64,000 nt of DNA, taken from contig CAVPHZ010000002.1 in NCBI GenBank assembly GCA_963704905.1, forward strand, positions 75,011-139,010, written 5' to 3'. The notes under the pieces were generated by a model. The model did no database searches and was not told the DNA's origin. It worked only from the letters and a program-made list of their open reading frames with translations. The translations under genes and the position numbers were made by a program. Shown here piece by piece: positions 4,925 to 22,577 of this stretch (within the stretch, counting starts at the first letter, position 1; each line of letters opens with the position of its first letter). The DNA comes from Candidatus Chisholmbacteria bacterium. GTDB lineage: Bacteria; Patescibacteriota; Microgenomatia; UBA1400; Chisholmbacteraceae.

Positions 4925-6496
4925 ATGAAATCCACTGAAAAAACCTTACTTATTCTACTGCTGTTAGTAACCTTTTTCAAAGGTGTGGTATGGTCGGCGT
5001 TTATTCCCATATGGCATACACCCGACGAGCAAGCCCATTTTGCTCAGGTGCAATACTATGCTGAAACAAATAGCAGAACATTCGCGGGCAACGATCTTTC
5101 CAAAGAAGTGTACGAGTCGGAACGGCTGTTAGGCACCTTACGTGATGATATGGGAAATAACGCCTTCACCTACCACCCGGAGTACAACATTGACTTTGGT
5201 ACAACAACAACGGGAATTTATGAATATCAGCTTTCAACGCTTCCCCATAGTTTTCGTACAGAATTTGTCAAAAAAGAAGCAGCCAGATATCCACCGCTGT
5301 TCTATATCATTAGTAGTCTAGGGTATAGAGTTGGAATGAATTCAGACATATTCGTCCGCATATTTCTGACAAGATATATATCGATAATCATGGGCACAGC
5401 AACCGTATGGATAAGTTATCTTTTAGCCAAGGAGATATTTTCCCGGAATGGGTTGCTATCAATTTCTATCGCAGCGTTTGTTTCATTTCAGCCAATGTTT
5501 ACCTTCCTGAATGCAGGTATAAATAATGATAATTTAATGAATCTGCTAGCCACAATTTTGCTCTGGTTGATGGTCAGAAGCCTGCGAACAGGAATCACCC
5601 TTGCAAGCAGTATCGCTATGGGCCTGGTAATCGGTTTAGGTATCATCACCAAGCAATTACTCTATCCGTTTATTCCGCTTCCGATACTGGTTTTTGGTTA
5701 TGAAATCCTCTTTCGCAAGGACAGGCAATCTAGTGCAGTCAAGAAAGTTATTCCCTTTCTCTTTGCACTGGTTCTTTTTGGCGGGATGGTATTTATTCAG
5801 CAATGGATACGAGGCGGCAAGCTTCCTGCCTGGCCATCTGGATCTGCTTCAGCTGCATCGGCCGACCTAACGATAACCGACTATCTCTTACAAAAATTTC
5901 CCCAGCTCTATAGAGAGACTTTTCCTTGGTATTGGGGGGTTTTCAAATGGTTGGGGGTTGTCTTGCCACTTAATGTTCTTCGGGCAATTAAAGTGGCTAT
6001 TGCAATTTCATTCATCGGCTTAGTAAAATACATCGCGAGCCAATTTAAGTTGAGAAAGTTAACAACTCAAGATTGGCAATTTCTGCTACTCATATTTTCC
6101 TCTGCCTGGTATATATACTGGTTGTTGATGTGGGATTTCATGCTCATCCGTTCGATAGGATTTTCACACGGATTACAGGGAAGGTACTTTTTTCCCAACC
6201 TGGCAGCTCATCTCACCTTAATCGCATTTGGGTTTTGGAACATTTCAAATCGTTATAAAATTAATATTCTTAAAGTCATGACCATCGCTATGATTGCTCT
6301 CAACACCATTGGACTCTACACAGTAATACACAGCTATTACCAGGTGTTCCCCATCTCGGTTCTTATAACTCAGGCGAGTCAATATAAACCATTGGTATTT
6401 AAAGGTCTTGGTTTGGTTGCTTGGGTAGCAATATACATTGCGTTATCTGGACAATTTATATCTCAGTATCTGTCATATAAGAAAGAGGACGCATGA
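4925..6496 (+). CDS. Polytopic membrane protein, DUF2142-like (putative GT-C-type glycosyltransferase)
   Basis: 523 aa with a signal-anchor followed by IPIWHTPDEQAHF (the PDE...H motif I recall for DUF2142) and many TM helices. It is coupled to the downstream gene by an ATGA overlap. Confidence 0.45.
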   Translation: MKSTEKTLLILLLLVTFFKGVVWSAFIPIWHTPDEQAHFAQVQYYAETNSRTFAGNDLSKEVYESERLLGTLRDDMGNNAFTYHPEYNIDFGTTTTGIYEYQLSTLPHSFRTEFVKKEAARYPPLFYIISSLGYRVGMNSDIFVRIFLTRYISIIMGTATVWISYLLAKEIFSRNGLLSISIAAFVSFQPMFTFLNAGINNDNLMNLLATILLWLMVRSLRTGITLASSIAMGLVIGLGIITKQLLYPFIPLPILVFGYEILFRKDRQSSAVKKVIPFLFALVLFGGMVFIQQWIRGGKLPAWPSGSASAASADLTITDYLLQKFPQLYRETFPWYWGVFKWLGVVLPLNVLRAIKVAIAISFIGLVKYIASQFKLRKLTTQDWQFLLLIFSSAWYIYWLLMWDFMLIRSIGFSHGLQGRYFFPNLAAHLTLIAFGFWNISNRYKINILKVMTIAMIALNTIGLYTVIHSYYQVFPISVLITQASQYKPLVFKGLGLVAWVAIYIALSGQFISQYLSYKKEDA

Positions 6497-7236
6497 TAGT
6501 AGGTATTATCGGAATGGGAGAGGTCGGAGGCGCAATAAAAAAGCTGTGTGAGAAGAAGCATGAAGTCTACTGGAGAACTCGTTCGGAAGACACGCTCAGC
6601 GGAAAACAGATTGATATTCTTCATTTATGTTTTCCATTCAATGAGAATTTTAAGCAAACAGCAATCGATGCTATCAATGAATTACGCCCGAAGTTAGTTA
6701 TTAATGATTCATCTGTCGAGCCAGGAGTTACTGAAGATATTTATAGTGCAACCAACACGCTTATCGTGCACGCTCCAATTATTGGCAAACACCCAGATCT
6801 ATATAAATATTTGTTTGAACTTGACAAGATCATCGGCCCGATCAATGATGAAGCATTTCAGTTAGCCAAGCTGCACTTTGAAGACTTAGGAGTCAAAACA
6901 GTCAGATTTAATTCACCTAGAGAGTCTGAGCTAGCCAAGATTTTATCAACAACCTACTACGGATGGAATATCATATTTGAGAAATTTGTTCATCGACTTT
7001 GCAAAGAGCAAGGTCTGGAGTTTGACAATGTTTATACAAAATTAAATACACTCTACAACGAAGGCTATGCGAAAACTCTGCCATATGTACGAAGACCAGT
7101 GTTGAAACACGAAGATGGTGAAATCGGAGGGCATTGCATAGTTCCCAACGCCAGAATCATCAATAGCTGGATCAACGACGAGTTCACGCAATTCTTACTT
7201 GCCCAAAATGAAAAAGCCAAAGCAGCAAAAGAGTAG
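6493..7236 (+). CDS. Short UDP-sugar dehydrogenase-family-like NAD-binding protein (lacks the C-terminal UDP-binding domain)
   Basis: N-terminal GIIGMGEVGG Rossmann motif. A central-domain-like segment ends in GEIGGHCIVPN, resembling the catalytic GxGGxC(L/I)PxD of UDP-glucose/ManNAc dehydrogenases. It is only 247 aa and the next gene starts immediately. Confidence 0.4.
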   Translation: MIVGIIGMGEVGGAIKKLCEKKHEVYWRTRSEDTLSGKQIDILHLCFPFNENFKQTAIDAINELRPKLVINDSSVEPGVTEDIYSATNTLIVHAPIIGKHPDLYKYLFELDKIIGPINDEAFQLAKLHFEDLGVKTVRFNSPRESELAKILSTTYYGWNIIFEKFVHRLCKEQGLEFDNVYTKLNTLYNEGYAKTLPYVRRPVLKHEDGEIGGHCIVPNARIINSWINDEFTQFLLAQNEKAKAAKE

Positions 7237-8713
7237 TAGGAAACTCGTTTATAAACTTTTTCCGTTAATAGGTATTCTCCTTTTGGCCATTTTTTTTCGC
7301 TTCTACAAGCTCGGAGATCTCCTTCACTGGACGCTCGATGAGGAGTATTGGGCCTACGTTTCATATAATCTTTCTACGGGATATCACATTCCCTTGATTG
7401 GTGGTCCGGTTTCCGGAACCGGAATGCAATTAGGGCCTCTTTACGTCTGGCTCATGGCTTTGCCGTTTGCGATTTTCCACGGAGATCCTATTGGAGTGGG
7501 AGCATTGATGTCACTTCTGGGTGTGGTCACAACCGGTTTGTTGTACTTAGTCACAACAAAAATTTGGGATCGCAAAGTCGGTTTCATAGCTTCCCTCATG
7601 TGGGCGTGCTCCTTCTTGGTTACTATCTACGATAGAAAATTTTGGAACGCAAGCCCAATACCCTTGTTGAGTTTAATGGCATTCTTTTGCGTGTATCAAA
7701 TCTCAAAAGGAAAACTCCGCTGGACGTACCTGCTTGCGGTTACGTTGGCAATTGCCTTCCATGCTCACATGACATCAGCTGCATTATTTCTGTTTGTTTT
7801 TGTGAGTTGGTTGTTGCTGAAAATTCCGCTAAGGAAAAAACAAGCACTGCTGAGTATTACAGTATTTCTCCTGCTGCAAACGCCATTAGCACTCTTTGAG
7901 CTGCGACACGAGTATTTCAATACCAACGCAATAATATCATTCGTCTCGCAAAAGAAGCAGCGAACATCCATCATGCAGTCAGTACAAGACGTAGGGAGTC
8001 TCGCTCTCAACACCTCTTCAAGGCTCATCTATGTACACCCAAATAGAGATATCGCTGACGAATTAACACTTTGTAGAGACTATGCTCAGAAGAGAACCAT
8101 TCCTTCCGCAGTATTTTCAATACCTATCCTGATCTCGATAGCCTCTATGATAAAACGTCGTTCAGGAACAGGGGAGAAACTCGTACTCATACTAGTGCTG
8201 ACGAATCTTCTTGGTCTGCTCTGGTTTCGCATCAACGCAAATCAGCAGAGTTGGTATACAGGACAACTGAATGAATACTACTTACTACCAAGTTTCCCGG
8301 CATATTTCATGATCATCGCTTTGACTTTTCGAGACGTATCAAGACGAAGCGCAATATTAAAGTGGATTATTATTGGTGGATTGTTACTCTACGCACTGTC
8401 TAATACCCAAACTCTGCTTTCAGCCAGGCACTCAGGAGGTTTTCAAAAGAAAAAAGAAATAATCAATAAAGTATTGTTGGACGTTCACAACAGACCATTT
8501 ACATTTACAGTTAAAAGCAAAGATAAGTGCCGTTTGTATGGGTATCGTTATCTGCTAACGGTAAGAAATCAGGAACCAGTAAACAGTTATCTCGATGGAC
8601 AGTTTGGCTGGTTGTATGAAAAAAGACTCTCAGCAGTCAAACCTGAACTGCAAGTTACAGTGCAGTATGAAGACGGAAAGATGAGCTATGTAATCGAACC
8701 TTCGGAACAATAA
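7199..8713 (+). CDS. GT-C fold membrane glycosyltransferase (family 39/83, ArnT/PMT-like)
   Basis: 504 aa with a basic N-terminus, then a TM helix followed by WTLDEEYW (a DE-type GT-C loop motif), multiple TM helices and a soluble C-terminal domain. Confidence 0.6.
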   Translation: MPKMKKPKQQKSSRKLVYKLFPLIGILLLAIFFRFYKLGDLLHWTLDEEYWAYVSYNLSTGYHIPLIGGPVSGTGMQLGPLYVWLMALPFAIFHGDPIGVGALMSLLGVVTTGLLYLVTTKIWDRKVGFIASLMWACSFLVTIYDRKFWNASPIPLLSLMAFFCVYQISKGKLRWTYLLAVTLAIAFHAHMTSAALFLFVFVSWLLLKIPLRKKQALLSITVFLLLQTPLALFELRHEYFNTNAIISFVSQKKQRTSIMQSVQDVGSLALNTSSRLIYVHPNRDIADELTLCRDYAQKRTIPSAVFSIPILISIASMIKRRSGTGEKLVLILVLTNLLGLLWFRINANQQSWYTGQLNEYYLLPSFPAYFMIIALTFRDVSRRSAILKWIIIGGLLLYALSNTQTLLSARHSGGFQKKKEIINKVLLDVHNRPFTFTVKSKDKCRLYGYRYLLTVRNQEPVNSYLDGQFGWLYEKRLSAVKPELQVTVQYEDGKMSYVIEPSEQ

Positions 8714-8736
8714 CAAATAAAAATCAAAATAAGATA

Positions 8737-9147
8737 CTACTCTTCTTCAGTGATCCTACCCAGAATCTTATTTTGTACTCCATATGAAACCAGAAACGTA
8801 CCTATTAATATAAGAATCGAAACTATAAGATTATCCTGGAAAAACCATGAGATCGATGAATAAAAAAACGTTACAGCAATGAGCGCCGACATTGCTGCGA
8901 TTTTTAACCGCTCTAATTTATATTGCTGCTCATAGAAAAGGGCGTCTTTGGTGCGGTAGTTTTCCTGTATTTTTTCCCGATCTTTGAGACGAATAAGAAT
9001 AGTCATTCCCCACATCCAAATGACAAATCCGAGCCAAAACATCTGCCAGATATATTGGAAACCTCCTTGAGTAACCAAAATGTGTCCAGTACCAAGAAAA
9101 ATTGATAAAAAAAGGAGAACCCCAACCAATTGAAGAAATCTAAGCAT
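8737..9147 (-). CDS. Small hypothetical membrane protein
   Basis: 136 aa with 3-4 predicted TM helices. It is the only minus-strand ORF here and is transcribed divergently from the flippase at 9240. Confidence 0.35.
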   Translation of the reverse strand: MLRFLQLVGVLLFLSIFLGTGHILVTQGGFQYIWQMFWLGFVIWMWGMTILIRLKDREKIQENYRTKDALFYEQQYKLERLKIAAMSALIAVTFFYSSISWFFQDNLIVSILILIGTFLVSYGVQNKILGRITEEE

Positions 9148-9239
9148 ATCGAGTTCTTTCTATATCTACTCTGACATATTATGAGCCTCAATGCAAATAG
9201 GTTCTCTCGCTCACCTCTGATACAATTAATAAAGACACG

Positions 9240-10523
9240 ATGATACGCAAATTACTTAAACTCGCGAATACTCAAACGGCAATAGACGCTACCTATATGA
9301 CTGTAGCAACTGGGGTGTCGGCTGTTATAGCCGCTATTTTCTTCATTCTTGTAGCCAGATTGACCGGACCAGAAACGTTGGGGCTATTCTCTCTTGCAAC
9401 TGCTGCCAGTTTTATGTTTGCCGATATCTTCGATATCGCGATCAACAATACCCTTATTCGTCATGTAGCCAAAGAGCTAGAACGAAATGAACAAAAGGCA
9501 AGCCAGTTCCTGAAATTTACCCTAAAATTCAAACTTGTCATTGGTGTGGCAATTGTTATCGTTGTAACCTCGTTTGCAGGTATGCTGTCAAAGCTTCTCT
9601 TTGGTAACTCTTTGCCGTTCATTATGATGCTGGTAGGAATCGGAACAGCGTTACATCTTCTCTACACCTTTACAATTTCTCATCTGCAAGCCAGAAAGCA
9701 GTTTCTGAAAGCAGCATTCGGAATTATCCTCATTCCAATCTTACGATTAACAGGTCTTGCTCTTGTTGTAGCATACAAAATGCTCAGACTTACCAGCATT
9801 CTTTCAGCCTATTTCTTCTCACTCCCGGTTGCAGCAGCGATGCTTATCATGTCATCATCTCGAACGTTTTTAAAAGTGAAAAATGAAAATATGATCGCTA
9901 AGCAATTCTTGCGCTACAACATTCCACTTACAGCGGGGTTTGCGCTTGCTTCTATAGGTGGAAGAATTGATAATTTCATTCTTGCCAACCTCGCTGACCC
10001 AAAATCAGTTGGGTTCTATGCAGCGGCATTTCGATTATTTACACCAATTCAATTTTTAGCGGGATCACTCTCTACAGTATTTGCACCCAGGTTTGCAGGA
10101 TTCGAGTCATCTCAAAAGGCCAAGAAATATTTTACAAAATCACTCGTTGGAATAACTCTTCTGAGTATCGTACTTTTATTAGCTATTCCATTCTCATCGT
10201 TTATTGTCAATCTTTTTTACGGTTCAGCTTACATTCCATCTATTCCAGTGCTTCAGATTCTCTTTTTTGGGTTTGCCGCTCTTATGCTTCAGGCACCGTT
10301 TTCATCACTCATTCTCTACTTCTTTTCTAAACCGAAAGTATTTACATTTGTTTCTCTCATTCAACTGATATTTATCATTACTGCTGATTCCATTCTCATT
10401 CCCAAATTTCAGGAAATTGGCGCTTCAATCGCATTTGTCATTACTCAGGGTGTTGTCTTATTGATTTTTGCAACCTATGTATTCAGGGAATTTCAGAAAT
10501 CTGATAGACAGGTGAGAATATGA
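9240..10523 (+). CDS. Oligosaccharide flippase family protein (Wzx/MOP)
   Basis: 427-aa polytopic membrane protein with the topology and length of a Wzx flippase. It is translationally coupled to the downstream glycosyltransferase. Confidence 0.6.
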   Translation: MIRKLLKLANTQTAIDATYMTVATGVSAVIAAIFFILVARLTGPETLGLFSLATAASFMFADIFDIAINNTLIRHVAKELERNEQKASQFLKFTLKFKLVIGVAIVIVVTSFAGMLSKLLFGNSLPFIMMLVGIGTALHLLYTFTISHLQARKQFLKAAFGIILIPILRLTGLALVVAYKMLRLTSILSAYFFSLPVAAAMLIMSSSRTFLKVKNENMIAKQFLRYNIPLTAGFALASIGGRIDNFILANLADPKSVGFYAAAFRLFTPIQFLAGSLSTVFAPRFAGFESSQKAKKYFTKSLVGITLLSIVLLLAIPFSSFIVNLFYGSAYIPSIPVLQILFFGFAALMLQAPFSSLILYFFSKPKVFTFVSLIQLIFIITADSILIPKFQEIGASIAFVITQGVVLLIFATYVFREFQKSDRQVRI

Positions 10524-11314
10524 TAACAGCCCATATGATGATTAAAAATGAAGAGCAGTGGATTTGGTTTGCAATACAATCAATACTGCCTTCCGTTATT
10601 AAAATATTCATTTACGATACTGGATCAACAGACAAAACTAAGCAGATCATTCAATCGATTTCATCGCCCAAGATTGAGCTAAAAGAAAAAGTAGTTACAG
10701 ATAGAGGACAGCTGACGCAATTACGAAATCAAATGGTAAGCGAGACGGAGACAGATTGGTTTCTTCTCGTCGATGGAGATGAAATTTGGCCGGGGCCAGC
10801 GCTAACCAAAATGTCATCAGCGATTCACAACGCAAGTGTGAGTACCTTGGGAATCGTCGTGCGAACTCGGAATTGCGTAGGTGACATATGGCACTATCAA
10901 CCTGAGTCAGCGGGTAAGTATGAACTACTTGGTAGAAAAGGACATCTGACAATTCGAGCCTACCGGAAAGTGGATGGCTTTATGTGGAATGGTATTTATC
11001 CGAATGAAGCGTATTGCGACGCAAAGGGAAATAAAATCAATGAACTGGACGACAAATTGAAATTCGTTGATGTGGCCTACTGGCATGTGACCCATCTGAA
11101 ACGTACTTCCAACCCAGATGATGTTATTGATAGAACAAAAAAAAGAAAAATAGAAAAGGGAATTAAAGCCCACGATAAAGAGCTTCCGGAGGTGTTTTTT
11201 GAGGATCGGCCACACTTTGTCCCTTCTCCTTGGTTTGAACCAAGTAAATTTGAAAGAACTGCAGCTGTAGTACTTACTCCACTTCGTGAATTAAAACGAA
11301 GGTTCAAAAAATGA
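10520..11314 (+). CDS. Glycosyltransferase family 2-like protein
   Basis: MIKNEE start, IYDTGSTDKT (the DxGSxD nucleotide-sugar binding motif) and LLVDGDE (a DxD-like motif). Confidence 0.5.
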   Translation: MITAHMMIKNEEQWIWFAIQSILPSVIKIFIYDTGSTDKTKQIIQSISSPKIELKEKVVTDRGQLTQLRNQMVSETETDWFLLVDGDEIWPGPALTKMSSAIHNASVSTLGIVVRTRNCVGDIWHYQPESAGKYELLGRKGHLTIRAYRKVDGFMWNGIYPNEAYCDAKGNKINELDDKLKFVDVAYWHVTHLKRTSNPDDVIDRTKKRKIEKGIKAHDKELPEVFFEDRPHFVPSPWFEPSKFERTAAVVLTPLRELKRRFKK

Positions 11315-12414
11315 AAATCCTATTTCTGAATATCTATAGCGGTATTAACCGTAGGGGTGCAGAATCGTTCACGAATGAACTCGCAAACCGCTTAGGACGA
11401 AACAATAGCGTCACTTTATTTCAGGCCGGAAACCAGAGCAGCAAGCAGACCGTTGAGATAAAAACATTCAACATGAACGTGCAGCAACCTCAAGAGACAC
11501 TTCCTGACTCACGCATTGGAAAGGTTCAAAAGCGCCTGTTTCTTGATTCAGCAAACAGAAGTGTATTGCTCTTTACCTTAAAAACTATCCCCTTAATCTT
11601 ACGAAGCGCCTTTGAGCTGCTTATCCCGATAAATGGATTCTGGCAACTGCTTCTTTTAAAATTGTTTCAGCCCTTCAAGAGATACAAAATACTTGTTATA
11701 GGGAATTCTGGTCCAGGCTGGGACGAACGGTTTAATCTTTATCTAAAACCAGACGTATTTGTGGCAACGACAGAGCCTTCTGCAGCTTGGGCGAAAAAAA
11801 TCGCCCCCTGGACAAGTGTGGAATACATTCCATACGCTATTGATAAAAATATTTTCTCTGATGCAGAGAAGGTCAATCTCAATCTCTCTGAGCCAATCAT
11901 TCTTTGCCCTTCCGCCCTAGTTACCTATAAACGAGTGGAGTTAGCGATCAAGGCAGTTGCACACTTAAATCGAGGATCATTATTAGTTCTAGGTCAAGGC
12001 CCACTCAAAGAAGACTTAGAAAAAAAAGGAAAACAGCTTCTCGGAAAACGATTTAGGCTCATGAGCGTACCATATAACGAGATGCCCAAGTATTACAAAG
12101 CCTGTCAGCTGGTAACGCTTCCTTCTTCTCCTCAAGAAAATTCTCCCATGGTTTTTCTCGAAAGTTTAGCAGCAGGAAAACTAGTCGTCACCACGGATAA
12201 TCCAAGATCACGCTGGATGCTAGAAGGAGCTGGCTTCTATTGCAATCCAGAGGATGTTGATGACTATGCGCTCTCAATAGAGCGAGCGTTAAATGAAAAT
12301 AATTCTGTTGAAGCAAAACGAAATATCAAAGACGCAAGAATGAAGTTTAACTGGGAAAAAGTAGTATCCAAATACGAGTTTATTATAATCAAAGATAATG
12401 ATATTAAGAAATAG
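11311..12414 (+). CDS. Glycosyltransferase family 4 (GT-B)
   Basis: C-terminal SPMVFLESLAAGKLVVTTD matches the GT4 E(x7)E/GxPVV region. 367 aa, ATGA-coupled. Confidence 0.55.
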   Translation: MKILFLNIYSGINRRGAESFTNELANRLGRNNSVTLFQAGNQSSKQTVEIKTFNMNVQQPQETLPDSRIGKVQKRLFLDSANRSVLLFTLKTIPLILRSAFELLIPINGFWQLLLLKLFQPFKRYKILVIGNSGPGWDERFNLYLKPDVFVATTEPSAAWAKKIAPWTSVEYIPYAIDKNIFSDAEKVNLNLSEPIILCPSALVTYKRVELAIKAVAHLNRGSLLVLGQGPLKEDLEKKGKQLLGKRFRLMSVPYNEMPKYYKACQLVTLPSSPQENSPMVFLESLAAGKLVVTTDNPRSRWMLEGAGFYCNPEDVDDYALSIERALNENNSVEAKRNIKDARMKFNWEKVVSKYEFIIIKDNDIKK

Positions 12415-14648: not shown

Positions 14649-15761
14649 ATGAAAATAGCAATTGATGTAACGGCCAGTATCTACGAGGGAACCGGGGTCG
14701 CAACCTACTACAACAATCTCATACCGAGATTGCTAAAACGTGCTCCTCATCACGAATTCATCCTCTTTGGATACTCGCTTCGTAGGCAAAAAGATCTGAA
14801 ACTTGCAAACAAAACCTTTCCATTTCCCCCAGGTCTCATGGAGATTATCTGGAACCGATTACATATCATACCTGTGGAAAGACTGGTAGGGGAGTGCGAT
14901 ATTCTCCATACCTGGGACTACATACAAGCACCGACAAGAAATGCAAAAGTCGTAACCACCATTCACGATCTAACACCTCTTAAATTTCCTAAACAGCAGC
15001 ATTCCAGAACCATAAAAGCATATAAACAAGGACTGAAGTGGGTGAAAAAAAGTGCTTCAGCGATCATTGCTGACTCACTCTCAACCAAACAAGATATTAT
15101 TGATTTGCTCAAAATTCCTAAGAACAAAATATTTACCGTGTATCTAGCCGCACCAGATCATTTTCATGACTTTTGTAAATTAAACCATAAAGATCAAGAA
15201 GTTCATATGAAGCAAGTAAAGAGTAAATACTCGATTGAGAATAAGTACCTCTTGTTTGTAGGTACTCAGGAGCCTAGAAAAAATCTTGAGAGAGTAATAA
15301 ACGCATTCAAGACACTCAACTCACAATTTCAATTAATCATTGCGGGAAATGTTGGCTGGGGAAAACGGATAAAGCCCGCAGAAAATGTGAAAACAATTGG
15401 ATTCGTAAGCGATCAGGATCTTCCAGCTCTGTTTGCAGGTGCTTCATGTTTTATTTACCCATCTCTCTATGAAGGTTTTGGGTTACCTGTCATAGAAGCT
15501 ATGGCTGTTGGCTGTCCAGTAGTTACCTCCGATAGAGGAAGTTTAGCTGAAATTTCCGGGGATGCTGCTGTATTGGTAAATCCTGAGAGTGTTGAGGCTA
15601 TATTATTTGGAATTGAATCAGCACTCAATAATAGTCAATCGCTTTCTGAAAAGGGCAAACAACGAGCAAAAGAATTTAGCTGGGATATGACTGCAGAGTA
15701 CACACTTGCAGTCTACGAGCGGATTGGTCAGCAGAGAAGTAGTATGGTTAAGAAACAGTAA
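14649..15761 (+). CDS. Glycosyltransferase family 4
   Basis: EGFGLPVIEAMAVGCPVVTSDRGSLAEI is the GT4 signature; 370 aa. Confidence 0.75.
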   Translation: MKIAIDVTASIYEGTGVATYYNNLIPRLLKRAPHHEFILFGYSLRRQKDLKLANKTFPFPPGLMEIIWNRLHIIPVERLVGECDILHTWDYIQAPTRNAKVVTTIHDLTPLKFPKQQHSRTIKAYKQGLKWVKKSASAIIADSLSTKQDIIDLLKIPKNKIFTVYLAAPDHFHDFCKLNHKDQEVHMKQVKSKYSIENKYLLFVGTQEPRKNLERVINAFKTLNSQFQLIIAGNVGWGKRIKPAENVKTIGFVSDQDLPALFAGASCFIYPSLYEGFGLPVIEAMAVGCPVVTSDRGSLAEISGDAAVLVNPESVEAILFGIESALNNSQSLSEKGKQRAKEFSWDMTAEYTLAVYERIGQQRSSMVKKQ

Positions 15762-15778
15762 AAACTTCAAGTTTGTTT

Positions 15779-16909
15779 TTATCCACGCTGATATTTATAA
15801 ATTACCATAACTGTTTGTGCAACCAGAACATACAATAAGGGAAGAGCAAGTAAAATGTATCGAGGAAATACCACATGAGTTGATTGAAACAGCAGGTAGA
15901 GCATCAGCCAGCCGAAGATCGTGCTAGCCTCTTTATTAACTTGTCGCTTTAAAGTCAGATACCCAAAAATGGGAAGTGCTAAAAAGGTACTAAGTGGCCA
16001 AGCAACCCAATACTCTTTAACTGGTTGGATGAGTGGATCTGTAAACCAGGTTCTCCATTCACCAATTAGTAAAATTCTCCAGATCTCAAACCATGGATAG
16101 TCGGGAAGATACGATCGATACAAACGGGCAATATCAACATGAAGCCACAGAAAATCAACAATCGAATGATTAATAAAAAACACAAGATAAGAAGTGAGGT
16201 ATACACCTAGACTCATAAGAGTTATTAGCAACATCGATTCAGCTTTCCCTTTAGCTTTTCTACTCCAGAGAATAAACATGGAATAGAGATAGAGCAATAC
16301 GCCAACAAATATTGCTTTGGATGCAATTGCCGCACCAACAACAATACCTAGAGCAATGAGTACTCTCCTGGTTTTTTTGGGTAACACCAATAACAAGATT
16401 GCAGTAAGAATAAAAAATAATTGTGGCATGTCAAGATTAACAGTCTGGCTGCGTTCAATGAACAATGGGTCAAATGCTAGAACTAGCGCTGGAATGAGGC
16501 TAAGAGACTGTGAAAGACCAATTTGCCTAGCAATGATAGAGGTGCACAAGAGTACGCCAAAGCTCAAAATAAATTGTATCAGCAGAATATTTCCACTGAG
16601 TAAATAAGAAATACCAAATAGATATTTTGCTAGCGGTGGATCCTCAAAATTGATTTCAGTGGGGTCTTTGCCCTGTACATATTCAAGCGCGGCATAGGTT
16701 CGCAGATCTTCATCGCTCATATTGCCAAAAAATTCATATTCCCCATTGAGGTTGTACTGCGAGTGGAGCCATATTTCGCGCAATTGACGAACATTGGTAT
16801 TTTGTCTTGGGGAATTATAAAAAGTTGAAAATGATCGAACGAGTATGAGTGTTGCAATTGTACTAATGAAAAGCATCTTCAGCAAATGCATGAATGGAGT
16901 ATACAACAA
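15779..16909 (-). CDS. GT-C fold membrane glycosyltransferase, protein-O-mannosyltransferase (PMT)-like
   Basis: 376 aa and polytopic. Loop 1 contains DEDLRTYAALEY and EDPPLAKYL, resembling the PMT DE and HPPLAK motifs. Confidence 0.55.
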   Translation of the reverse strand: MLYTPFMHLLKMLFISTIATLILVRSFSTFYNSPRQNTNVRQLREIWLHSQYNLNGEYEFFGNMSDEDLRTYAALEYVQGKDPTEINFEDPPLAKYLFGISYLLSGNILLIQFILSFGVLLCTSIIARQIGLSQSLSLIPALVLAFDPLFIERSQTVNLDMPQLFFILTAILLLVLPKKTRRVLIALGIVVGAAIASKAIFVGVLLYLYSMFILWSRKAKGKAESMLLITLMSLGVYLTSYLVFFINHSIVDFLWLHVDIARLYRSYLPDYPWFEIWRILLIGEWRTWFTDPLIQPVKEYWVAWPLSTFLALPIFGYLTLKRQVNKEASTIFGWLMLYLLFQSTHVVFPRYILLALPLLYVLVAQTVMVIYKYQRG

Positions 16910-16945
16910 GAGGTTTCAAGAGGTCTCCAATGATATACTGTCTCC

Positions 16946-18055
16946 ATGACTATCGGAATAGATGGGAATGAAGCAAATATAAACAGACGTGTTGGAAGCA
17001 ATATTTACGCGTATAAGTTGCTTGAAGGGTTTCAAAAGCTCGACAGTAGTAATAACTTCATAGTCTATCTCAAGTCTCAAGCTCGTGAGGAGATGCCTCC
17101 GACATCCATGAGATGGAAATACCACACACTTCAACCGAAAGCGTTCTGGACGAGATTTCGGCTTCCGTTAGAGCTATTTCTAAACCGCTCAAAAATATCA
17201 GTGTTTTTCACACCTGGACATTACGCGCCAAAATATAGTCCGGTTCCTTTGGCAGTTTCAGTGATGGATCTTTCATATTTATATTATCCAGAAATGTTTA
17301 AGAAAGGGGATTTATATAAATTAATGAATTGGACAGCAGATTCAATAAAAAGAGCAGATCACATTTTCACGATTTCGAATTTCAACAAAACTGAAATTGT
17401 AAAATACTATCAAGTACCAGAGGAAATAATTACAGTTACGTATCCTGGATTGGGTAAACCGGTTAGTTCAGCTAGGGGTGATGATGAATTTCTATCTTTG
17501 AAAGAAAAACTAAACATTCCAGATAAATATCTTCTGTATTTGGGGACTTTGCAGCCACGAAAAAACATCGTAAAAATGATCCAGGCATTTTCAATGCTTG
17601 ATCAACCAGACGTTTATCTTGTCATCGCAGGAAAAAAGGGCTGGCATTACAAAGATATCTTTGAAACTGCGAATAAATCTGGTGTTTCTGATAGAATCAT
17701 CTTTACTGGCTATGTAACTGATAATATAAAATGGGTGCTTTTAAAAAAGGCATCAGCTCTGGTTTTAGTGAGTTTATATGAAGGATTTGGAATACCAGTT
17801 GCCGAAGCGATGCAAGTTGGAACTCCAGTCGTGATATCAAATGCATCTAGTCTTCCAGAGATAACTGGAGAAGTTGGAATTCAAGTTGATCCAGGGTTGA
17901 GAGAAAGCATTGCATCAGGTTTATCCAAAGCAGTTCATTTAAATGAATCCCAGAGAAAACAATTAGCCATGAAAAGTAAAAAGATAGCAGAACGCTATTC
18001 ATGGGAGAATGCAACTAAAAAGACGTTGGAGGTACTCTATGAACTCGCCATTTAA
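16946..18055 (+). CDS. Glycosyltransferase family 4
   Basis: EGFGIPVAEAMQVGTPVVISNASSLPEI is the GT4 signature. Confidence 0.75.
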   Translation: MTIGIDGNEANINRRVGSNIYAYKLLEGFQKLDSSNNFIVYLKSQAREEMPPTSMRWKYHTLQPKAFWTRFRLPLELFLNRSKISVFFTPGHYAPKYSPVPLAVSVMDLSYLYYPEMFKKGDLYKLMNWTADSIKRADHIFTISNFNKTEIVKYYQVPEEIITVTYPGLGKPVSSARGDDEFLSLKEKLNIPDKYLLYLGTLQPRKNIVKMIQAFSMLDQPDVYLVIAGKKGWHYKDIFETANKSGVSDRIIFTGYVTDNIKWVLLKKASALVLVSLYEGFGIPVAEAMQVGTPVVISNASSLPEITGEVGIQVDPGLRESIASGLSKAVHLNESQRKQLAMKSKKIAERYSWENATKKTLEVLYELAI

Positions 18056-18644
18056 AGACAGAATGGGAAACCAACTAACTTGGAATGAAGCAAACAACAA
18101 AATAGCTTTCCGAATGAAAAGCTATTCAATAGAGATGACGACATCACTGTTGTGGTGGTTGAGTTTTTTACCCTCGCACACACTGCGCAAGATCTTGATC
18201 AAAGCTGCTGGTGTGAAAATCGGAATAAATTCCTATATCCACATCGGCTGCAGATTCTTTGAACCAACAAATATTTCTGTTGGAACGGGGACAATCATCG
18301 GTGACAATGTTGTACTAGATGGAAGAGACTCATTGGAAATAGGTGATCACGTCGACATCGCTTCTCATGTGATGATCTATAACGGAAGCCGAGACATACA
18401 TACCGAGGATTTTAAACTCGTTTTAAGACCTGTGAAGATTGGCAATTATGTGTTTATTGGACCACGTGCTGTGATTTTACCCGGAGTCACGATAGGAGAT
18501 GGAGCTGTTATTGGAGCTGGAGCGGTAGTTACAAAAGATATTCCACCCAACGTTCTGGCTGGAGGGGTTCCAGCAAGAGTGATAAAACAGCGAAATGTAA
18601 AACAACTGAAATACCGCCTTGGTAGAGCCCGTCTGTTTCTCTAA
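18039..18644 (+). CDS. Hexapeptide-repeat (LbH) acetyltransferase, WcaF/maltose O-acetyltransferase-like, with an N-terminal TM anchor
   Basis: Tandem hexapeptide repeats (IGDNVVLDG...IGDHVDIAS...IGNYVFIGP...IGDGAVIGAGAVV). A GGAGGT ribosome-binding site lies 5 nt before the ATG at 18039. The ORF track starts earlier at 18009. Confidence 0.7.
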   Translation: MNSPFKDRMGNQLTWNEANNKIAFRMKSYSIEMTTSLLWWLSFLPSHTLRKILIKAAGVKIGINSYIHIGCRFFEPTNISVGTGTIIGDNVVLDGRDSLEIGDHVDIASHVMIYNGSRDIHTEDFKLVLRPVKIGNYVFIGPRAVILPGVTIGDGAVIGAGAVVTKDIPPNVLAGGVPARVIKQRNVKQLKYRLGRARLFL

Positions 18645-18678
18645 TTGAAGCAGAAGATAGATTTATCTCCTCAAAGTC

Positions 18679-19563
18679 ATGAAACTTTCAATTATCATCA
18701 TCAGTCACAATACTCAGGAATTGCTCGCCCAGACAATAGCATCGATACCGATGAAATCTGACTGGGAGTTAATCATCGTGGACAATGCTTCGTCAGATGA
18801 TTCAGTAAAAATGATTAAGAAACGCTATCCAAAAGTAAAGCTTATAATCAACAATAATAATCTCGGATTCGCAAAAGCCAACAATCAAGGAATTGCGGTA
18901 GCAAATGGTGAGTTTATATTCCTGCTCAACTCAGATACATTGGTCCATGAACAAGCCATCGATGAATTAGTACGAATCATGCAAGCTAATACGGATGTTG
19001 GCATTGTCACCGGTCAGCTTCTAAATGCAGACGGTACAATTCAACCTCAAGGTGGATATCTTCCTACTCTAGTTCGTGTAATCCATTGGATGTTCTTTAT
19101 AGATGATATTCCCGGAGTGAAAAGATTGTTAAAGCCATATCAGCTTCGGGATCAATCACTGTTTAAGCAAGAGTTAAACCTTGGCTGGGTAAGTGGGACA
19201 GCAATGATGATACGCCGTCAAGTACTAGATCAGGTTGGTTACCTCAGTGAAGAGTTCTTCATGTATGGAGAAGATGTTGAATTTTGCATGAGAGTAAAAC
19301 GAGCTAATTGGATAATCGTTTCTGCACCGAGAGCAAAAATAACGCATTTATCCCATAAAAGTTCTGGAGGGTTACCTACGGCTGCATATGTAGGAGAATT
19401 CAAGGCGATAAAAATAATATTTGAGAAGAAAACCAAACTCGAATTCATTCTGGTAAGGGCAGTTCTTAAACTAGGTGCGCTCCTCCGAATGATAATCTTT
19501 GGTATACTGCAAGGCAGGAAAACCTCCTATGAAGCGTATAAAAAAGCTTTCAACCTGGCTTGA
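18679..19563 (+). CDS. Glycosyltransferase family 2
   Basis: MKLSIIIISHNT...IIVDNASSDDS followed by LLNSDT (DxD-like). Confidence 0.7.
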   Translation: MKLSIIIISHNTQELLAQTIASIPMKSDWELIIVDNASSDDSVKMIKKRYPKVKLIINNNNLGFAKANNQGIAVANGEFIFLLNSDTLVHEQAIDELVRIMQANTDVGIVTGQLLNADGTIQPQGGYLPTLVRVIHWMFFIDDIPGVKRLLKPYQLRDQSLFKQELNLGWVSGTAMMIRRQVLDQVGYLSEEFFMYGEDVEFCMRVKRANWIIVSAPRAKITHLSHKSSGGLPTAAYVGEFKAIKIIFEKKTKLEFILVRAVLKLGALLRMIIFGILQGRKTSYEAYKKAFNLA

Positions 19564-21127
19564 TTCCCACGCGCTAGATATTATTACCGGTTTTTTACTG
19601 GTATTTATTCCATTGTATCCAAAGTGGCCGTTGGCAGATGTGTTGCCAGGCTACATTGTTAGACTGAGATTAGAAGATCTCATTATCGCAGTGGTTGTCA
19701 TGTTCTGGCTAATTCAGCTAGCTCGAAAAAAAGTCAGTCTTAAAAAGAACCCTCTTACCATTCCAATCATGTTATATCTTAGTATCGGATTCATTTCATC
19801 GCTATCTGCGTTATTTATTACAAAAACCGTACCACTAGAGGGATCGCATGTCGCAAAACTCTTTCTCCACTGGGCCAGAAGAGTTGAATACATGTCTCTC
19901 GCATTTATTTTTTTCTCAGCAGTAAAGACATCAAAACAACTAAGAAGAATTGTCATAATCCTCTCTGTCGTAGTGGTTCTCACTTCTCTATACGGATTTG
20001 GCCAAAAGTACATGCAGTGGCCGGTATATTCAACCATGAATAGAGAATTCGCAAAGGGATGGCGTCTGGTTCTTACTGAGCATGCCCGGGTACCCTCAAC
20101 TTTTGCCGGGCATTACGATTTTGCTGCCTACTCGGTAATTGTGCTCTCAATATTGGTGAGTCTATTGTTTGCAGGTAGTAAAAAAAAGAGCGCAAAAATT
20201 CTTTTAGTAATGGTCTTTCTCGCTGGATTTGCTTCACTTCTACTGACCGCTTCAAGAACATCATTTATTGCATATCTAGCTGCAATCACAATAGTCGCAT
20301 ATTTATTCGCTATAAAAAAAGGATTTCTCTGGAGCCTATCACGTTGGTCTGCGATCGTCACTGTGAGTTTGGTTGGGATGCTTATGTTTGGTGATCTTTC
20401 AGAGAGATTTGCCCACGTCCTCAGGATTAATCAATTGAAGGAATATGTAAATACTGAACTTATCAGCTTGCTGAAAAGCGGGCAATCATCAAAACCACAG
20501 TTCAACCTCAATCAAGATCTCTCGCTGGTATATACCGATACAGACCAACCGCCCATAAGACCCGGAAATTTGCCTTTTGATGTGTTCGAACAAATTCCAG
20601 AAGCATTTCCGGAAGCAACACTTTCAGCAACTTCAGCAGCCGATCTAGAACGGATTGCATCACTTGCCGGTAAGCCTCGTAACTACTCGCCAGCAGCTTT
20701 CACATTTGGACTCTCATCAGCAATTCGATTTGATGCGCTGTGGCCCAGAGCGATTGCCGGTTTCAAAAGAAACCCTCTCCTTGGATCTGGCTACTCAACC
20801 TTGTTGAAAACCCAGCAGACAGAATTCACAGAAGCTGAGTCAACAGACAATGATTTTCTTAGAGCTTTAGGAGAAACGGGTATCTTAGGGTTTATAAGTT
20901 TCTTCGGAATTATGGCTTTTGCATTGTATAAAGTATGGACACAGAAACAAAAAATAAAAAGTTCATTCGACTATGCAATCATAGCTGGGATATCTGGTGC
21001 AATTATTGGTATGTTGGTAAACGGACTGTATATTGATGTTTTTGAGGCTTCAAAGGTTGCCTATACATTTTGGGCTCTAATCGGATTATTATTCGCAACA
21101 CTTAATATATCAAAGAGTAATAGATAA
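19529..21127 (+). CDS. O-antigen ligase / O-antigen polymerase-like (Wzy_C) membrane protein
   Basis: About 532 aa and polytopic. A large loop carries RFDALWPRAIAGFKRNPLLGSGY and NDFLRALGETGILGF, resembling the Wzy_C R...W...PxxGxG and H..L..L.E.G motifs. The start was chosen at the internal Met; the track gives 19499. Confidence 0.5.
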   Translation: MKRIKKLSTWLDSHALDIITGFLLVFIPLYPKWPLADVLPGYIVRLRLEDLIIAVVVMFWLIQLARKKVSLKKNPLTIPIMLYLSIGFISSLSALFITKTVPLEGSHVAKLFLHWARRVEYMSLAFIFFSAVKTSKQLRRIVIILSVVVVLTSLYGFGQKYMQWPVYSTMNREFAKGWRLVLTEHARVPSTFAGHYDFAAYSVIVLSILVSLLFAGSKKKSAKILLVMVFLAGFASLLLTASRTSFIAYLAAITIVAYLFAIKKGFLWSLSRWSAIVTVSLVGMLMFGDLSERFAHVLRINQLKEYVNTELISLLKSGQSSKPQFNLNQDLSLVYTDTDQPPIRPGNLPFDVFEQIPEAFPEATLSATSAADLERIASLAGKPRNYSPAAFTFGLSSAIRFDALWPRAIAGFKRNPLLGSGYSTLLKTQQTEFTEAESTDNDFLRALGETGILGFISFFGIMAFALYKVWTQKQKIKSSFDYAIIAGISGAIIGMLVNGLYIDVFEASKVAYTFWALIGLLFATLNISKSNR

Positions 21128-21128
21128 T

Positions 21129-22577
21129 ATGAGTAAGAATAATACACAATTCTCAAAAGAGTACATAATAGTTTCAATAATCATTATTATCGGCTTTGTA
21201 CTAAGACTTTATAAAATAACGAACCCTCTAGCAGACTGGCATTCGTGGCGACAGGCTGACACATCCGCCGTTACTAGACGTTATGTGCAAGAAGGGATAG
21301 ATCTATTACAACCAAAGTATGACGACATATCTAGTATCCCATCAGGAATAGACAATCCTTCTGGGTATCGTTTTGTTGAGTTTCCTTTCATCAATGCCTT
21401 GACTGCACTTGCCATACAAAAAATACCAGATACGGGAATTGAAATTTGGGGAAGGCTCATCTCAATTCTATTTTCACTCGGATCGATTCTCGCTGTCTAT
21501 GAAATTGCCAAATGGTATTTCAGCAAATCTGTGGGTTTCATATCTGCTGCGGTGTTTGCAATCCTGCCCTACAACCTCTACTACCATAGAACCATACTTC
21601 CAGAAGTACCAATGGTGTTTTTTGCACTTTTTGGATATTATTTTTTCTTGCGTTGGCTAAAAAATGAAGATAAATTAGACTTTCTAAGCTCTGTAATTAT
21701 AACCTCTCTTGGAGTTCTTCTCAAGCCATATATCCTTTTTCTTGCTTTACCATTAGGGTACGAGGCTGTTCGGAAATGGAGAGCATCGGTAGTGAAACAA
21801 TTCTCTTTATATATATTCCTTGTACTGATTCTAATCCCATTCATCATTTGGAGAATGTGGGCTTCGCAGTTTCCAGAAGGAATTCCTGCGTACGAATGGC
21901 TACTGAATGGAAGTGGAATACGATTTCGCCCTGCCTTCTTTCGCTGGATATTCGCCGAAAGAATTGGCAAGCTCATTCTCGGGTATTGGCTACTTATTCC
22001 GTTTGGGTTAGGGATTGTGAAAAGACCAACTAAAAAAAGTGGTTGGGCATTACATTGGTGGTTGTTGGCAATTCTCCTTTATCTTGTAACCTTCGCAACC
22101 GGAAACGTAACCCATGATTACTATCAGATAATAATCGTTCCTCCGATTGCAATTGCGGTTGGTGTTGGAATTGATTTTCTTATAAGCTCCAAATCGCGTG
22201 AAATACATCGATTGGTTGGCATACTTCTATGTATTCTAGTGTTAGGATTTGGTCTTGGCTTCTCTTGGTTTTATATCAGAGATTTTTACAACATCAATCA
22301 TCCAGAAATAGTTGCTGCTGGTGAAGCTGCTAACTTCATTCTTCCACCAGATGCAAAAGTAATAGCTCCCTATGGTGGCGATACTGCATTTCTATATCAG
22401 ATCAATCGTCTAGGTTGGCCGATCGGTGGAGATATACAGTCCAAGATTGAGAAAGGAGCGACAGATTACATTACCGTAAATTTTGATGAGGAAGCCAAAC
22501 TCCTCTCAGAAAAGTGTCAACCAGCAATCACAGTTGAAGAGACAACCATCATCAGTTTACGTAACTGTAACCTATGA
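21129..22577 (+). CDS. GT-C fold membrane glycosyltransferase (family 39/83, ArnT-like)
   Basis: TM1 is followed by ADWHSWRQADTSAVTRRY, matching the family 83/39 'SWRQADTA' loop motif. 482 aa, polytopic. Confidence 0.65.
   Translation: MSKNNTQFSKEYIIVSIIIIIGFVLRLYKITNPLADWHSWRQADTSAVTRRYVQEGIDLLQPKYDDISSIPSGIDNPSGYRFVEFPFINALTALAIQKIPDTGIEIWGRLISILFSLGSILAVYEIAKWYFSKSVGFISAAVFAILPYNLYYHRTILPEVPMVFFALFGYYFFLRWLKNEDKLDFLSSVIITSLGVLLKPYILFLALPLGYEAVRKWRASVVKQFSLYIFLVLILIPFIIWRMWASQFPEGIPAYEWLLNGSGIRFRPAFFRWIFAERIGKLILGYWLLIPFGLGIVKRPTKKSGWALHWWLLAILLYLVTFATGNVTHDYYQIIIVPPIAIAVGVGIDFLISSKSREIHRLVGILLCILVLGFGLGFSWFYIRDFYNINHPEIVAAGEAANFILPPDAKVIAPYGGDTAFLYQINRLGWPIGGDIQSKIEKGATDYITVNFDEEAKLLSEKCQPAITVEETTIISLRNCNL

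Follow-up and report, generated by a model that had tools for sequence, protein, structure and literature searches.

Why a bacterium would gather five putative GT-C glycosyltransferases at a single locus, and what they build at its surface, is the question raised by a 64,000-nucleotide stretch of contig CAVPHZ010000002.1 (assembly GCA_963704905.1), referred to here as the window, with genes named by their start positions in it. Judged by its gene content, the source organism is a Microgenomates-type bacterium of the Candidate Phyla Radiation (CPR) near Chisholmbacteria. The CPR accounts for a large share of bacterial diversity, and a life attached to other cells is assumed for its members; to our knowledge, experiments have revealed almost nothing about the cell envelopes of Microgenomates and of most CPR. 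Open reading frame (ORF) calling combined with Pfam and NCBIfam scans delimits a glycan island of 28 genes, arranged in a nearly unbroken run at ~83-30654. On balance, this region is judged to encode an undecaprenyl-phosphate-based envelope glycoconjugate pathway, in which a vertically inherited core is combined with decoration modules particular to sub-lineages.

All island genes but four lie on the plus strand, and their reading frames mostly overlap or nearly abut. They encode five GT-C enzymes of the PMT_2/DUF2142 type, one Wzy_C protein, six glycosyltransferases of family GT4 and four of family GT2, two Wzx flippases, an acetyltransferase and a methyltransferase. As far as family assignments can tell, this is a cell-surface glycan operon with multiple extracytoplasmic transferases, its components all drawn from known families. 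A first-pass annotation of the window had counted six GT4 and four or five GT2 enzymes, two flippases, an acetyltransferase and a methyltransferase, and had placed all of them within 4925-22577. The counts are borne out, with GT2 enzymes numbering four, flippases of the Polysacc_synt family and an acetyltransferase of the hexapeptide type. The placement is not: the methyltransferase, one flippase, one GT2 and three of the GT4 enzymes fall outside that interval, which is also too narrow as the boundary of the system, since the priming transferase, the GDP-mannose gene and the DUF4012 gene fall beyond it. The six membrane proteins that it had singled out occur at the positions given, each with a Pfam match (below threshold for 13224).

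The case for an inherited core comes from related genomes. One genome per GTDB species was queried with two conserved peptides of the 21129 protein; at least 599 stretches matched, and at least 574 of the 599, in species-representative genomes, encode a 21129-type protein. The comparison set comprised 80 of these loci, each with flanks of 10 kb on either side, and the island proteins were searched against their ORFs. All of the 80 that carry informative titles belong to Microgenomates lineages. Among the matches listed, the genomes closest in 21129 are Chisholmbacteria (57-58% identity), and names of homologs include GT39 proteins from Patescibacteria, Chisholmbacteria, Shapirobacteria and Collierbacteria. 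A core of 13-15 genes (~17 kb), running from the GT4 gene 14649 through the DUF4012 gene that ends at 30654, is syntenic in nearly all 80 loci, in the order GT4 (14649), GT4 (16946), acetyltransferase (18009), GT2 (18679), Wzy_C (19499), GT-C (21129), GT4 (22574), GT2 (23761), GT4 (24654), GT4 (25797), GDP-mannose gene (26909), priming transferase (28016) and DUF4012 (28651). Each core gene is present in 81-100% of the 43 loci with full flanks (the value for 21129 rises from 88% to ~100% when fusions are counted), and recO and glyS follow the DUF4012 gene in 49 loci. The core proteins have median ortholog identities of 36-52%, compared with 33% for RecO. Synteny, a fixed chromosomal position and identity at or above that of RecO argue against a hypervariable O-antigen or capsule island, in keeping with the first-pass view that the locus is not a simple O-antigen cluster. 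The core is probably a vertically inherited, housekeeping-like pathway that makes a basic envelope component of Microgenomates rather than a variable O-antigen. Recent horizontal acquisition of the island is ruled out by its fixed genomic position, its RecO-like divergence and a GC content that is even over the window, with no anomaly at the island. Many of the related records (L004, L007, L008, L011-L013 and others) are titled 'uncultured Gammaproteobacteria' or 'Pseudomonadales' yet carry the Microgenomates-type operon, and these submitter labels are therefore evidently placeholders or wrong. A literature search, incomplete for subscription journals, returned no account of the operon, of its conservation in Microgenomates or of fusions between Wzy_C and PMT_2 (Wzy_C-GT-C) proteins.

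Within the core, the genes for the Wzy_C protein and the GT-C enzyme 21129 are closely linked. They lie 1 nucleotide apart in the window, and in 11 of the 80 loci, from independent metagenome-assembled genomes, they form a single ORF of ~1009-1061 amino acids (e.g. L014:8348-11461, L020:8312-11437 and L073:8354-11500). The fusion loci are mostly Gottesmanbacteria and come from independent studies; the linker of ~35 amino acids is cytoplasmic and lacks an extra transmembrane segment, and Pfam, run on three of the fusions, scores Wzy_C as well as PMT_2 over the cut-off in each. [quoted passage not shown] Enzymes of the WaaL-like type typically use diphosphate-linked oligosaccharides, and those of the GT-C type monophosphate-linked sugars. 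The Wzy_C ORF spans 19499-21127; the identical database protein P0121 has 532 amino acids, so translation likely starts at 19529 rather than 19499. Its AlphaFold2 model (predicted local distance difference test score, pLDDT, 76.6; predicted template modelling score, pTM, 0.80) has one significant fold match in the PDB, the ligase WaaL 7tpg (7tpg_B; Foldseek E 6.7e-5, probability 1.00, TM 0.60 on target), and contains an extracytoplasmic insert of ~190 amino acids that is partly disordered in the model. More than 100 positions are invariant in 41 sequences of the family, and the invariant R243 (SRTS) is paired with R215 of WaaL (TQTRAT) by hhalign, at a probability of merely 2.6%. On the model, the protein is WaaL-like in fold.

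Its partner is well matched by known structures. The AlphaFold2 model of 21129 (pLDDT 89.3, pTM 0.90) has 33 matches in the PDB at E<=0.001, all of them GT-C enzymes, including STT3 (E 2e-10), ArnT, AglB, PglB, ALG9/12, DPY19, AftA/B and Pmt4; its TM-score against ArnT (5ezm/5f15) is 0.67-0.68, and like ArnT it has a C-terminal alpha/beta domain. In the alignment of 43 homologs, the first outer loop is long and strongly conserved, with invariant D36, W37, H38, S39, W40, R41, Q42, D44 and E84. Compared with the 21129 family by profile, the 13224 family scores 98.9% in hhalign (E 2.7e-17, 402 columns), the 7199 family 92.9% (422 columns) and the 15779 family merely 15.7%; as single sequences, 4925, 7199 and 15779 match the 21129 family weakly (10-62%). 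The curated Pfam threshold for PMT/PMT_2 is passed by 4925, 7199, 15779 and 21129 and failed by 13224 (23.4 < 26.1); the GT-C status of 4925 draws on Pfam scores well over threshold, and the 13224 family has invariant W42, D44, E45, P71 and P72. All five proteins carry an acidic motif just past the first hydrophobic segment (DE in 4925, DEE in 7199, DE in 13224, DED in 15779 and D36/D44 in 21129), and their loop motifs read TPDEQ and YPPLFY (4925), TLDEEY (7199), WLDEA and HPPLFH (13224), SDEDL and EDPPLAKY (15779) and DWHSWRQADT (21129). The DE, HPPL/PPLAK and SWRQADT motifs noticed on first inspection are thus present in the translations directly after the first hydrophobic helix, and neither unrelated transporter families nor a loop topology at odds with GT-C enzymes was observed in the Pfam matches, the hydrophobic segments or the 21129 fold. 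The positively charged N-termini suggest that the acidic loops face outside, and by analogy such GT-C enzymes would typically use polyprenyl-phosphate-linked donors. The WWDXG motif of STT3/PglB/AglB was not seen (no WWD in the 21129 sequence or family consensus), no MIR domain was matched by Pfam in any of the five, and PDB sequence searches with 21129, 4925, 19499 and the profiles A1, A2 and A3 returned nothing. Pairwise BLASTP among the five GT-C enzymes gives E >= 0.004, similarity so barely detectable that they appear to be old, functionally distinct paralogs; recent tandem duplication is ruled out on the same ground.

The families, folds, synteny, fusion and conservation are observed; from them we infer in which order the steps would follow, which donors would be used, that the glycan would be transferred whole and what kind of acceptor would receive it. 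The phosphoglycosyltransferase 28016 would load undecaprenyl phosphate at the cytoplasmic face, and five GT4 and two GT2 enzymes would extend the product to an oligosaccharide of ~8 sugars, probably containing mannose, with GDP-mannose supplied by 26909 and the glycan O-acetylated by the WcaF-type 18009. A Wzx-type flippase would bring the lipid-linked glycan to the outer face, where the WaaL-like protein (19529-21127) would take it off its diphosphate carrier and attach it to an acceptor. There the protein would form a physical unit with 21129, which would draw on a polyprenyl-monophosphate donor to add a sugar, whether to the acceptor, thereby priming it, or to the product. The other GT-C enzymes would build branches outside the membrane in a Gtr/Csd/Gac-like manner, through 13224 with the GT2 12398, through the set 4925-6493-7199-9240-10520 and through 15779, and the DUF4012 protein, located outside the cytoplasm, would be linked to the priming enzyme. 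Candidate acceptors are a membrane glycolipid, a protein and peptidoglycan. Single-step transfer of the complete glycan is slightly favoured over polymerisation, which keeps a smaller though appreciable likelihood, because there are 7-9 cytoplasmic transferases, no Wzz or other polysaccharide co-polymerase (PCP), a fold match to a ligase only and strong conservation of the Wzy_C protein. Families and fold thus support the first-pass proposal of a large system for serial, lipid-linked-sugar-dependent glycosylation at the outer surface.

Several observations weigh against this pathway or parts of it. At the sequence level, hhalign gives the Wzy_C family and E. coli WaaL a probability of 2.6%. 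When E. coli WaaL HNEIIEAGSLKG is aligned by hand with DNDFLRALGETG, an alignment that is provisional, an invariant aspartate stands at the histidine of the H(x10)G motif (H337 in E. coli); this is D440 in the 532-residue numbering and is invariant in the 41 sequences. Since the motif histidine is apparently aspartate and the sequence match is weak, the chemistry may differ from that of WaaL, and the protein may also serve as a polymerase. No gene for a Wzz/PCP, a LytR-CpsA-Psr (LCP) protein, a sortase-linked protein or a candidate acceptor (S-layer, pilin) was found in the window. No polyprenyl-phosphate-sugar synthase of the Dpm1/GtrB/ArnC type was recognised in the 64 kb, and the ~230-amino-acid Dpm1-like GT2 of relatives has no ortholog there. 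The GT-C status of 15779 draws on modest Pfam scores, and the GtrA identity tried for the four-helix protein 8737 was rejected, with zero matches to GtrA or any other Pfam family even at E<10. NCBIfam assigns no sugar specificity at equivalog cut-off except for WecB, and names no glycosyltransferase.

If the locus instead made a Wzx/Wzy-dependent wall polysaccharide or capsule, Wzy_C would be its polymerase, DUF4012 a co-polymerase, chain-length or attachment factor, and the GT-C enzymes would add side chains as in the rhamnose-rich wall polysaccharides of lactococci and streptococci. Priming transferase, Wzx and Wzy_C are all at hand, Wzy_C weakly matches the repeat-unit polymerase family TIGR04370 (24 bits in NCBIfam, below cut-off), DUF4012 has the priming enzyme and Wzz as neighbours in the exopolysaccharide (EPS) locus of Bifidobacterium longum, and the operon is adjacent to the cell-wall/division cluster. 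The layout also mirrors that of rgp/cwps loci, which unite a conserved and a variable part and include DUF2142 and side-chain enzymes of the GT-C type (PMC9574508, PMC9746298). However, genes for rhamnose synthesis, an ABC exporter, an LCP ligase, a tyrosine kinase or a Wzz/PCP are absent from the window: scans with Pfam and NCBIfam of window ORFs of at least 100-120 amino acids, a few overlapping or embedded ones excepted, found no rml, RgpA/B/F, RgpCD ABC exporter or LCP ligase, and the 'rhamnosyltran' subfamily matches of the two GT2 paralogs are weak and far below cut-off. Wzy polymerases are usually hypervariable, whereas this family has its many invariant positions; seven to nine cytoplasmic transferases are a large number for a repeat unit, and the sole PDB fold match is a ligase. 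A polymerised wall polysaccharide is accordingly regarded as rather unlikely.

The Wzy_C family includes bacterial O-oligosaccharyltransferases, and a PglL/WsaB-type enzyme of this kind could transfer the glycan onto Ser/Thr of S-layer proteins, pilins or other surface proteins, with the PMT-like GT-C enzymes O-mannosylating proteins or trimming or extending the protein-bound glycan. The Pfam matches to PMT/PMT_2 and the lack of Wzz in the window fit such protein O-glycosylation, and ~8 cytoplasmic transferases suit one large, defined oligosaccharide better than a repeat unit. Group-wide conservation also has a parallel, as Bacteroidetes possess a phylum-wide O-glycosylation locus. Yet neither an acceptor protein nor a sequon was identified in the window, a PMT name is no proof of a protein acceptor (ArnT, Aft and Emb share the fold), the essential histidine of WaaL/PglL-type enzymes seems replaced by aspartate, and the MIR domain is absent from the five enzymes, which together leave protein O-glycosylation an unlikely explanation. 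A lipoglycan resembling lipomannan and lipoarabinomannan (LM/LAM) or lipooligosaccharide, with the WaaL-like enzyme ligating the glycan to a membrane glycolipid and GT-C mannosyltransferases extending it from polyprenyl-phosphate-mannose, would suit the GDP-mannose gene in the core, the GT4 and GT-C combination that also characterises mycobacterial synthesis of phosphatidylinositol mannosides and LM/LAM, the ligation of glycans to lipid acceptors by WaaL-type enzymes, the shared lipid acceptor suggested by the ArnT-like fusion and a weak NCBIfam match of 13224 to the mannosyltransferase MT1671 (46 bits vs a cut-off of 900), but it is quite improbable, given that this match is far below cut-off, that no genes for synthesis of an anchor lipid were found in the window and that LM/LAM synthesis involves no phosphoglycosyltransferase or WaaL-like step.

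The undecaprenyl-phosphate-based glycoconjugate pathway with a conserved core is thus preferred, and it is the DUF4012 protein that closes the core. This protein is anchored in the membrane at its N-terminus, continues with a helical region and has a large domain outside the cytoplasm that is strongly conserved. Among 30 orthologs (that of the window and 29 others), ~60 residues are invariant, including several Asp, Arg, His and Lys; two cysteines are invariant and two more nearly so. These ~60 invariant residues suggest that the domain is an enzyme rather than a scaffold. Its profile found no relative in the PDB, where it gave merely insignificant coiled-coil matches. Among the other core proteins, the GT2 enzymes 18679 and 23761 are paralogs (36% identity), the GDP-mannose protein 26909 matches NCBIfam GMP_PMI over the GMP part (234.6 bits), and the priming enzyme 28016 matches EPS_sugtrans (240 bits) and WbaP (221 bits) over the catalytic domain. 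A bolder and distinctly doubtful proposal is that an ancient glycoconjugate, passed on vertically and probably indispensable, is common to Microgenomates and possibly to other CPR, and that it is finished by a previously undescribed WaaL-fold/GT-C machine with aspartate for the catalytic histidine, in which the GT-C enzyme would prime, its partner would ligate the ~8-sugar glycan, and DUF4012 would be a new enzyme. If true, this glycan would be among the first structures to consider as the means by which these ultra-small episymbionts attach to their hosts.

The five GT-C enzymes do share one surface-glycan island, as the first-pass annotation held, and they do not form a single unit: one belongs to the core (21129), one to a widespread GT2 and GT-C pair (12398/13224), and three are lineage-restricted (4925, 7199 and 15779). 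Of the loci with full flanks, 60% carry 13224 and at least 35% carry 12398; the two recur together on the upstream side of the core, and in many loci the 12398 homolog stands immediately before that of 13224. Homologs of 15779 occur in Chisholmbacteria-like loci only (L001, L004, L006, L012, L036, L080, L081 and L082), with a probable one in L084, where an unannotated gene of 372 amino acids occupies the same position. The 7199 family is rare (41 homologs in a search of 5.8 billion proteins vs >4367 for 21129), and a metagenome scan with 7199 returned no relatives. Nevertheless, a module of DUF2142 protein, a protein X, PMT_2 enzyme, Wzx flippase and GT2 recurs in four independent contigs (L081, L082, L084 and L085), and L082 has a sixth PMT_2 gene; because it recurs in independent relatives, the multi-GT-C arrangement is not a chance cluster. 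In these four contigs, a DUF2142-type gene takes the place of 4925 (in L084 it encodes 521 amino acids, with no Pfam match recorded), the counterpart of flippase 9240 always follows the 7199-type GT-C gene, and GT2 genes of 266-275 amino acids stand in the place of 10520. Beside the module in L085, a more distant relative, L085:15000-16607 and 21141-21536 encode further polytopic proteins (DUF6798 and DUF2079), which may be additional GT-C-type enzymes.

Protein X, encoded by 6493 in the window, has ~250 amino acids (355 in L085) and always lies between the DUF2142 and PMT_2 GT-C genes; the window copy bears a distant likeness to the N-terminal and central parts of nucleoside diphosphate (NDP)-sugar dehydrogenases, its best PDB match being the UDP-ManNAcA dehydrogenase 4r16 (E 0.011). 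Its frame overlaps both neighbouring GT-C genes, as it does in L081 and L084, and it is 66% identical to the L081 ORF; genes at this position encode 250 amino acids in L081 (L081:6236-6988), 243 in L082 (L082:9064-9795) and 248 in L084 (L084:7078-7824). It could modify a lipid-linked sugar donor. With regard to supply of such donors, we infer only that the GT2 12398 is a candidate polyprenyl-phosphate-sugar synthase; a GtrB/Dpm1 identity is not supported, its matches being generic for GT2 (EpsD 99 bits vs GtrB 5ekp 37 bits). The small protein 8737 is possibly a lipid-sugar flippase or activator. Elsewhere, P0278 (711 amino acids, on a Logan contig of 6714 bp) is a natural fusion of a Dpm1-like GT2 with a 7199-type PMT_2 GT-C, and would join a lipid-sugar synthase to the GT-C enzyme that consumes its product. 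The remaining genes of the left arm (Table 1) include the epimerase gene 83..928, which belongs to this accessory arm and is truncated at the N-terminus by the window edge; the GT4 gene 11311, found in 23% of full-flank loci, a lower bound since it sits at the flank edge; and the gene 3043, whose product gave zero matches in Pfam or NCBIfam. The L081 counterpart of 3043 is presumably an unannotated gene of 281 amino acids upstream of the epimerase of that locus, and genes of 296 and 289 amino acids occupy the equivalent place in L082 and L084.

Table 1. Features of the glycan island and the cluster downstream of it (positions in the window; presence is the fraction of the 43 loci with full flanks that carry the gene; MOP, multidrug/oligosaccharidyl-lipid/polysaccharide; SAM, S-adenosylmethionine; TM, transmembrane segment)
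Feature	Position	Strand	Evidence
WecB-type UDP-GlcNAc 2-epimerase	83..928	+	Epimerase_2 283 bits (profile 71-347); wecB 297 bits vs cut-off 210
SAM-dependent methyltransferase, candidate for sugar O-methylation	928..1749	+	Methyltransf_11/25/31; weak NCBIfam match to MftM oligosaccharide methyltransferase
MOP-family (Wzx-type) flippase 1	1759..3006	-	Polysacc_synt 77.7 bits; ~7 or more hydrophobic segments
Protein with a single membrane helix at the N-terminus; relatives have it too	3043..3915	+	48% identity to L081 ORF
NAD-dependent NDP-sugar epimerase/dehydratase	3946..4896	-	Epimerase 196.7 bits; NCBIfam below equivalog cut-offs
GT-C, DUF2142/PMT_2 type, first in five-gene module	4925..6496	+	DUF2142 89.1 bits, PMT_2 44.5 bits; ~8 or more TM
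NDP-sugar-dehydrogenase-like Rossmann protein, 247 amino acids	6493..7236	+	TIGR03026 36 bits, far below cut-off
GT-C, PMT_2 type, lineage-restricted	7199..8713	+	PMT_2 40.4 bits
Small membrane protein, 136 amino acids, 4 TM	8737..9147	-	4 hydrophobic segments; L081 ortholog in same place
MOP-family (Wzx-type) flippase 2	9240..10523	+	Polysacc_synt 72.4 bits; NCBIfam MOP flippase and Wzx_EPS both weak
GT2, last of accessory five-gene module	10520..11314	+	Glycos_transf_2 50.4 bits
GT4	11311..12414	+	Glycos_transf_1 72 bits
GT2 with hydrophobic C-terminus (segment 231-249)	12398..13249	+	Glycos_transf_2 130 bits; overlaps 13224 gene
GT-C, widespread	13224..14645	+	PMT_2 23.4 bits, under 26.1 cut-off; presence 0.60
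GT4, first core gene	14649..15761	+	Glycos_transf_1 113.6 bits; presence 93%
Short GT-C, PMT/PMT_2 type (modest scores), sub-lineage only	15779..16909	-	PMT 32.7 bits (cut-off 22.7), PMT_2 30.2 bits
GT4, core	16946..18055	+	Pfam 109.4 bits; presence 0.98
WcaF/LacA-type hexapeptide O-acetyltransferase, core	18009..18644	+	Hexapep; NCBIfam WcaF family 110.8 bits; presence 1.0
GT2, core	18679..19563	+	Pfam 90.1 bits; presence 0.81
WaaL-like Wzy_C-family membrane transferase, core	19529..21127	+	Wzy_C 53.7 bits (cut-off 31.7); presence 1.0
GT-C with ArnT/STT3-like fold and C-terminal soluble domain, core	21129..22577	+	PMT_2 54.0 bits, PMT 33.6 bits
GT4, core	22574..23764	+	Glyco_trans_1_4 92.4 bits; TIGR03087 225 bits, below cut-off; presence 1.0
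GT2, core	23761..24657	+	Pfam 94 bits; presence 0.95
GT4, core	24654..25778	+	Pfam 100 bits; presence 0.98
GT4, core	25797..26942	+	Pfam 98.5 bits; presence 0.98
Mannose-1-phosphate guanylyltransferase-like protein (GDP-mannose supply)	26909..28012	+	NTP_transferase and ManC_GMP_beta-helix; presence 0.91
Small monotopic polyprenyl-phosphate phosphoglycosyltransferase (priming)	28016..28657	+	Bac_transf 200.8 bits; presence 0.95
DUF4012 protein, last operon gene	28651..30654	+	DUF4012 91.7 bits; one TM at 60-78; presence 0.91
Division/cell-wall cluster: mraW, ftsI, murE, two glmU-like, murC/B/A, glmS ribozyme and glmS, mraY, murI, murD, ftsW, murG, ftsA, ftsZ			

Downstream of the island come recO and glyS, and then the complete division/cell-wall cluster. 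Several essential genes of this region are split between frames, namely glyS (31277-32638), mraW (34510-35135), that of the ftsI-type penicillin-binding protein (35434-37177) and ftsW (50745-51883). In tblastn with intact orthologs, the glycyl-tRNA synthetase reads in frame 2, then 1, then 2, and in a Logan assembly with the same 21129 protein it is intact (452 amino acids), which points to indel errors in the record, or to real pseudogenes; the glycan genes are without such breaks. The cluster also contains a glmS ribozyme/riboswitch (44998-45200; Rfam 68.8 bits, E 1e-13) directly 5' of glmS (45261-47066) and an adjacent pair of GlmU-like genes. The first of these (38397-39734) encodes an archaeal-type bifunctional sugar-1-phosphate nucleotidylyltransferase/acetyltransferase (TIGR03992, 262 bits), and the second (39742-40488, 248 amino acids) matches bacterial GlmU in its N-terminal half alone, the uridylyltransferase part. 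The window carries two FtsW/RodA (SEDS) genes, the frame-split one in the division cluster and an intact one at 60106-61182.

An operon of ~17 kb that keeps its order beside cell-wall and division genes implies a defined, probably important surface molecule. The interest of the locus, which is moderate, rests on class-wide conservation within a poorly understood radiation, on the coupled WaaL-like/GT-C pair and on the modular GT-C arms. [quoted passage not shown]

Individual parts of the island have counterparts in well-studied systems. The succession of a priming phosphoglycosyltransferase, DUF4012 and glycosyltransferase genes is shared with the EPS/capsular polysaccharide locus of Bifidobacterium longum 105-A, which differs in having Wzz, in varying between strains and in that no GT-C enzyme was reported there (PMC5412050). 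Méheust et al. [quoted passage not shown] With ArnT (GT83) and with STT3/PglB/AglB (GT-C class A), 21129 shares its fold, a polytopic architecture with a C-terminal soluble domain and an acidic first outer loop; it differs in sequence (11-15% identity), in lacking WWDXG and in its distinct invariant loop motif ADWHSWRQxDT. The Wzy_C protein resembles the WaaL ligases of Cupriavidus metallidurans (7tpg) and E. coli in its Wzy_C domain, in its sole significant fold match and perhaps in the arginine of an S/T-R-T/A motif that lies opposite E. coli R215 in a low-confidence alignment, but it gave no sequence-level PDB match and has the ~190-amino-acid insert, the invariant aspartate apparently in place of histidine and, in some lineages, the fusion to a GT-C enzyme. 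As the organism has no lipopolysaccharide, the acceptor must also differ from that of WaaL.

A close overall comparison is with the multicomponent transmembrane glycosylation of wall polysaccharides by CsdAB/CflA and WpsA-J in L. lactis and by GacI-L in S. pyogenes (PMC9574508). In such Gram-positive wall polysaccharides, side chains are attached outside the membrane by GT-C enzymes unrelated to one another in sequence, together with GT2 partners and flippases of the Wzx type (PMC9574508), and DUF2142 proteins occur in these loci (PMC9746298). The window shares with them a monoderm envelope, GT2 genes beside or overlapping a GT-C gene, a Wzx-type flippase in the cluster, GT-C enzymes alike in fold and poor in sequence similarity, and the division into a conserved backbone part and a variable side-chain part. 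It departs from them in the lack of rhamnose genes, ABC exporter and LCP ligase; in its Bac_transf-type priming; in GT2 partners that are not recognisably of GtrB/GacI type; in a WaaL-like Wzy_C protein fused or coupled to a GT-C enzyme, with five GT-C enzymes in one locus; and in a core that is conserved over a class-level group rather than a genus.

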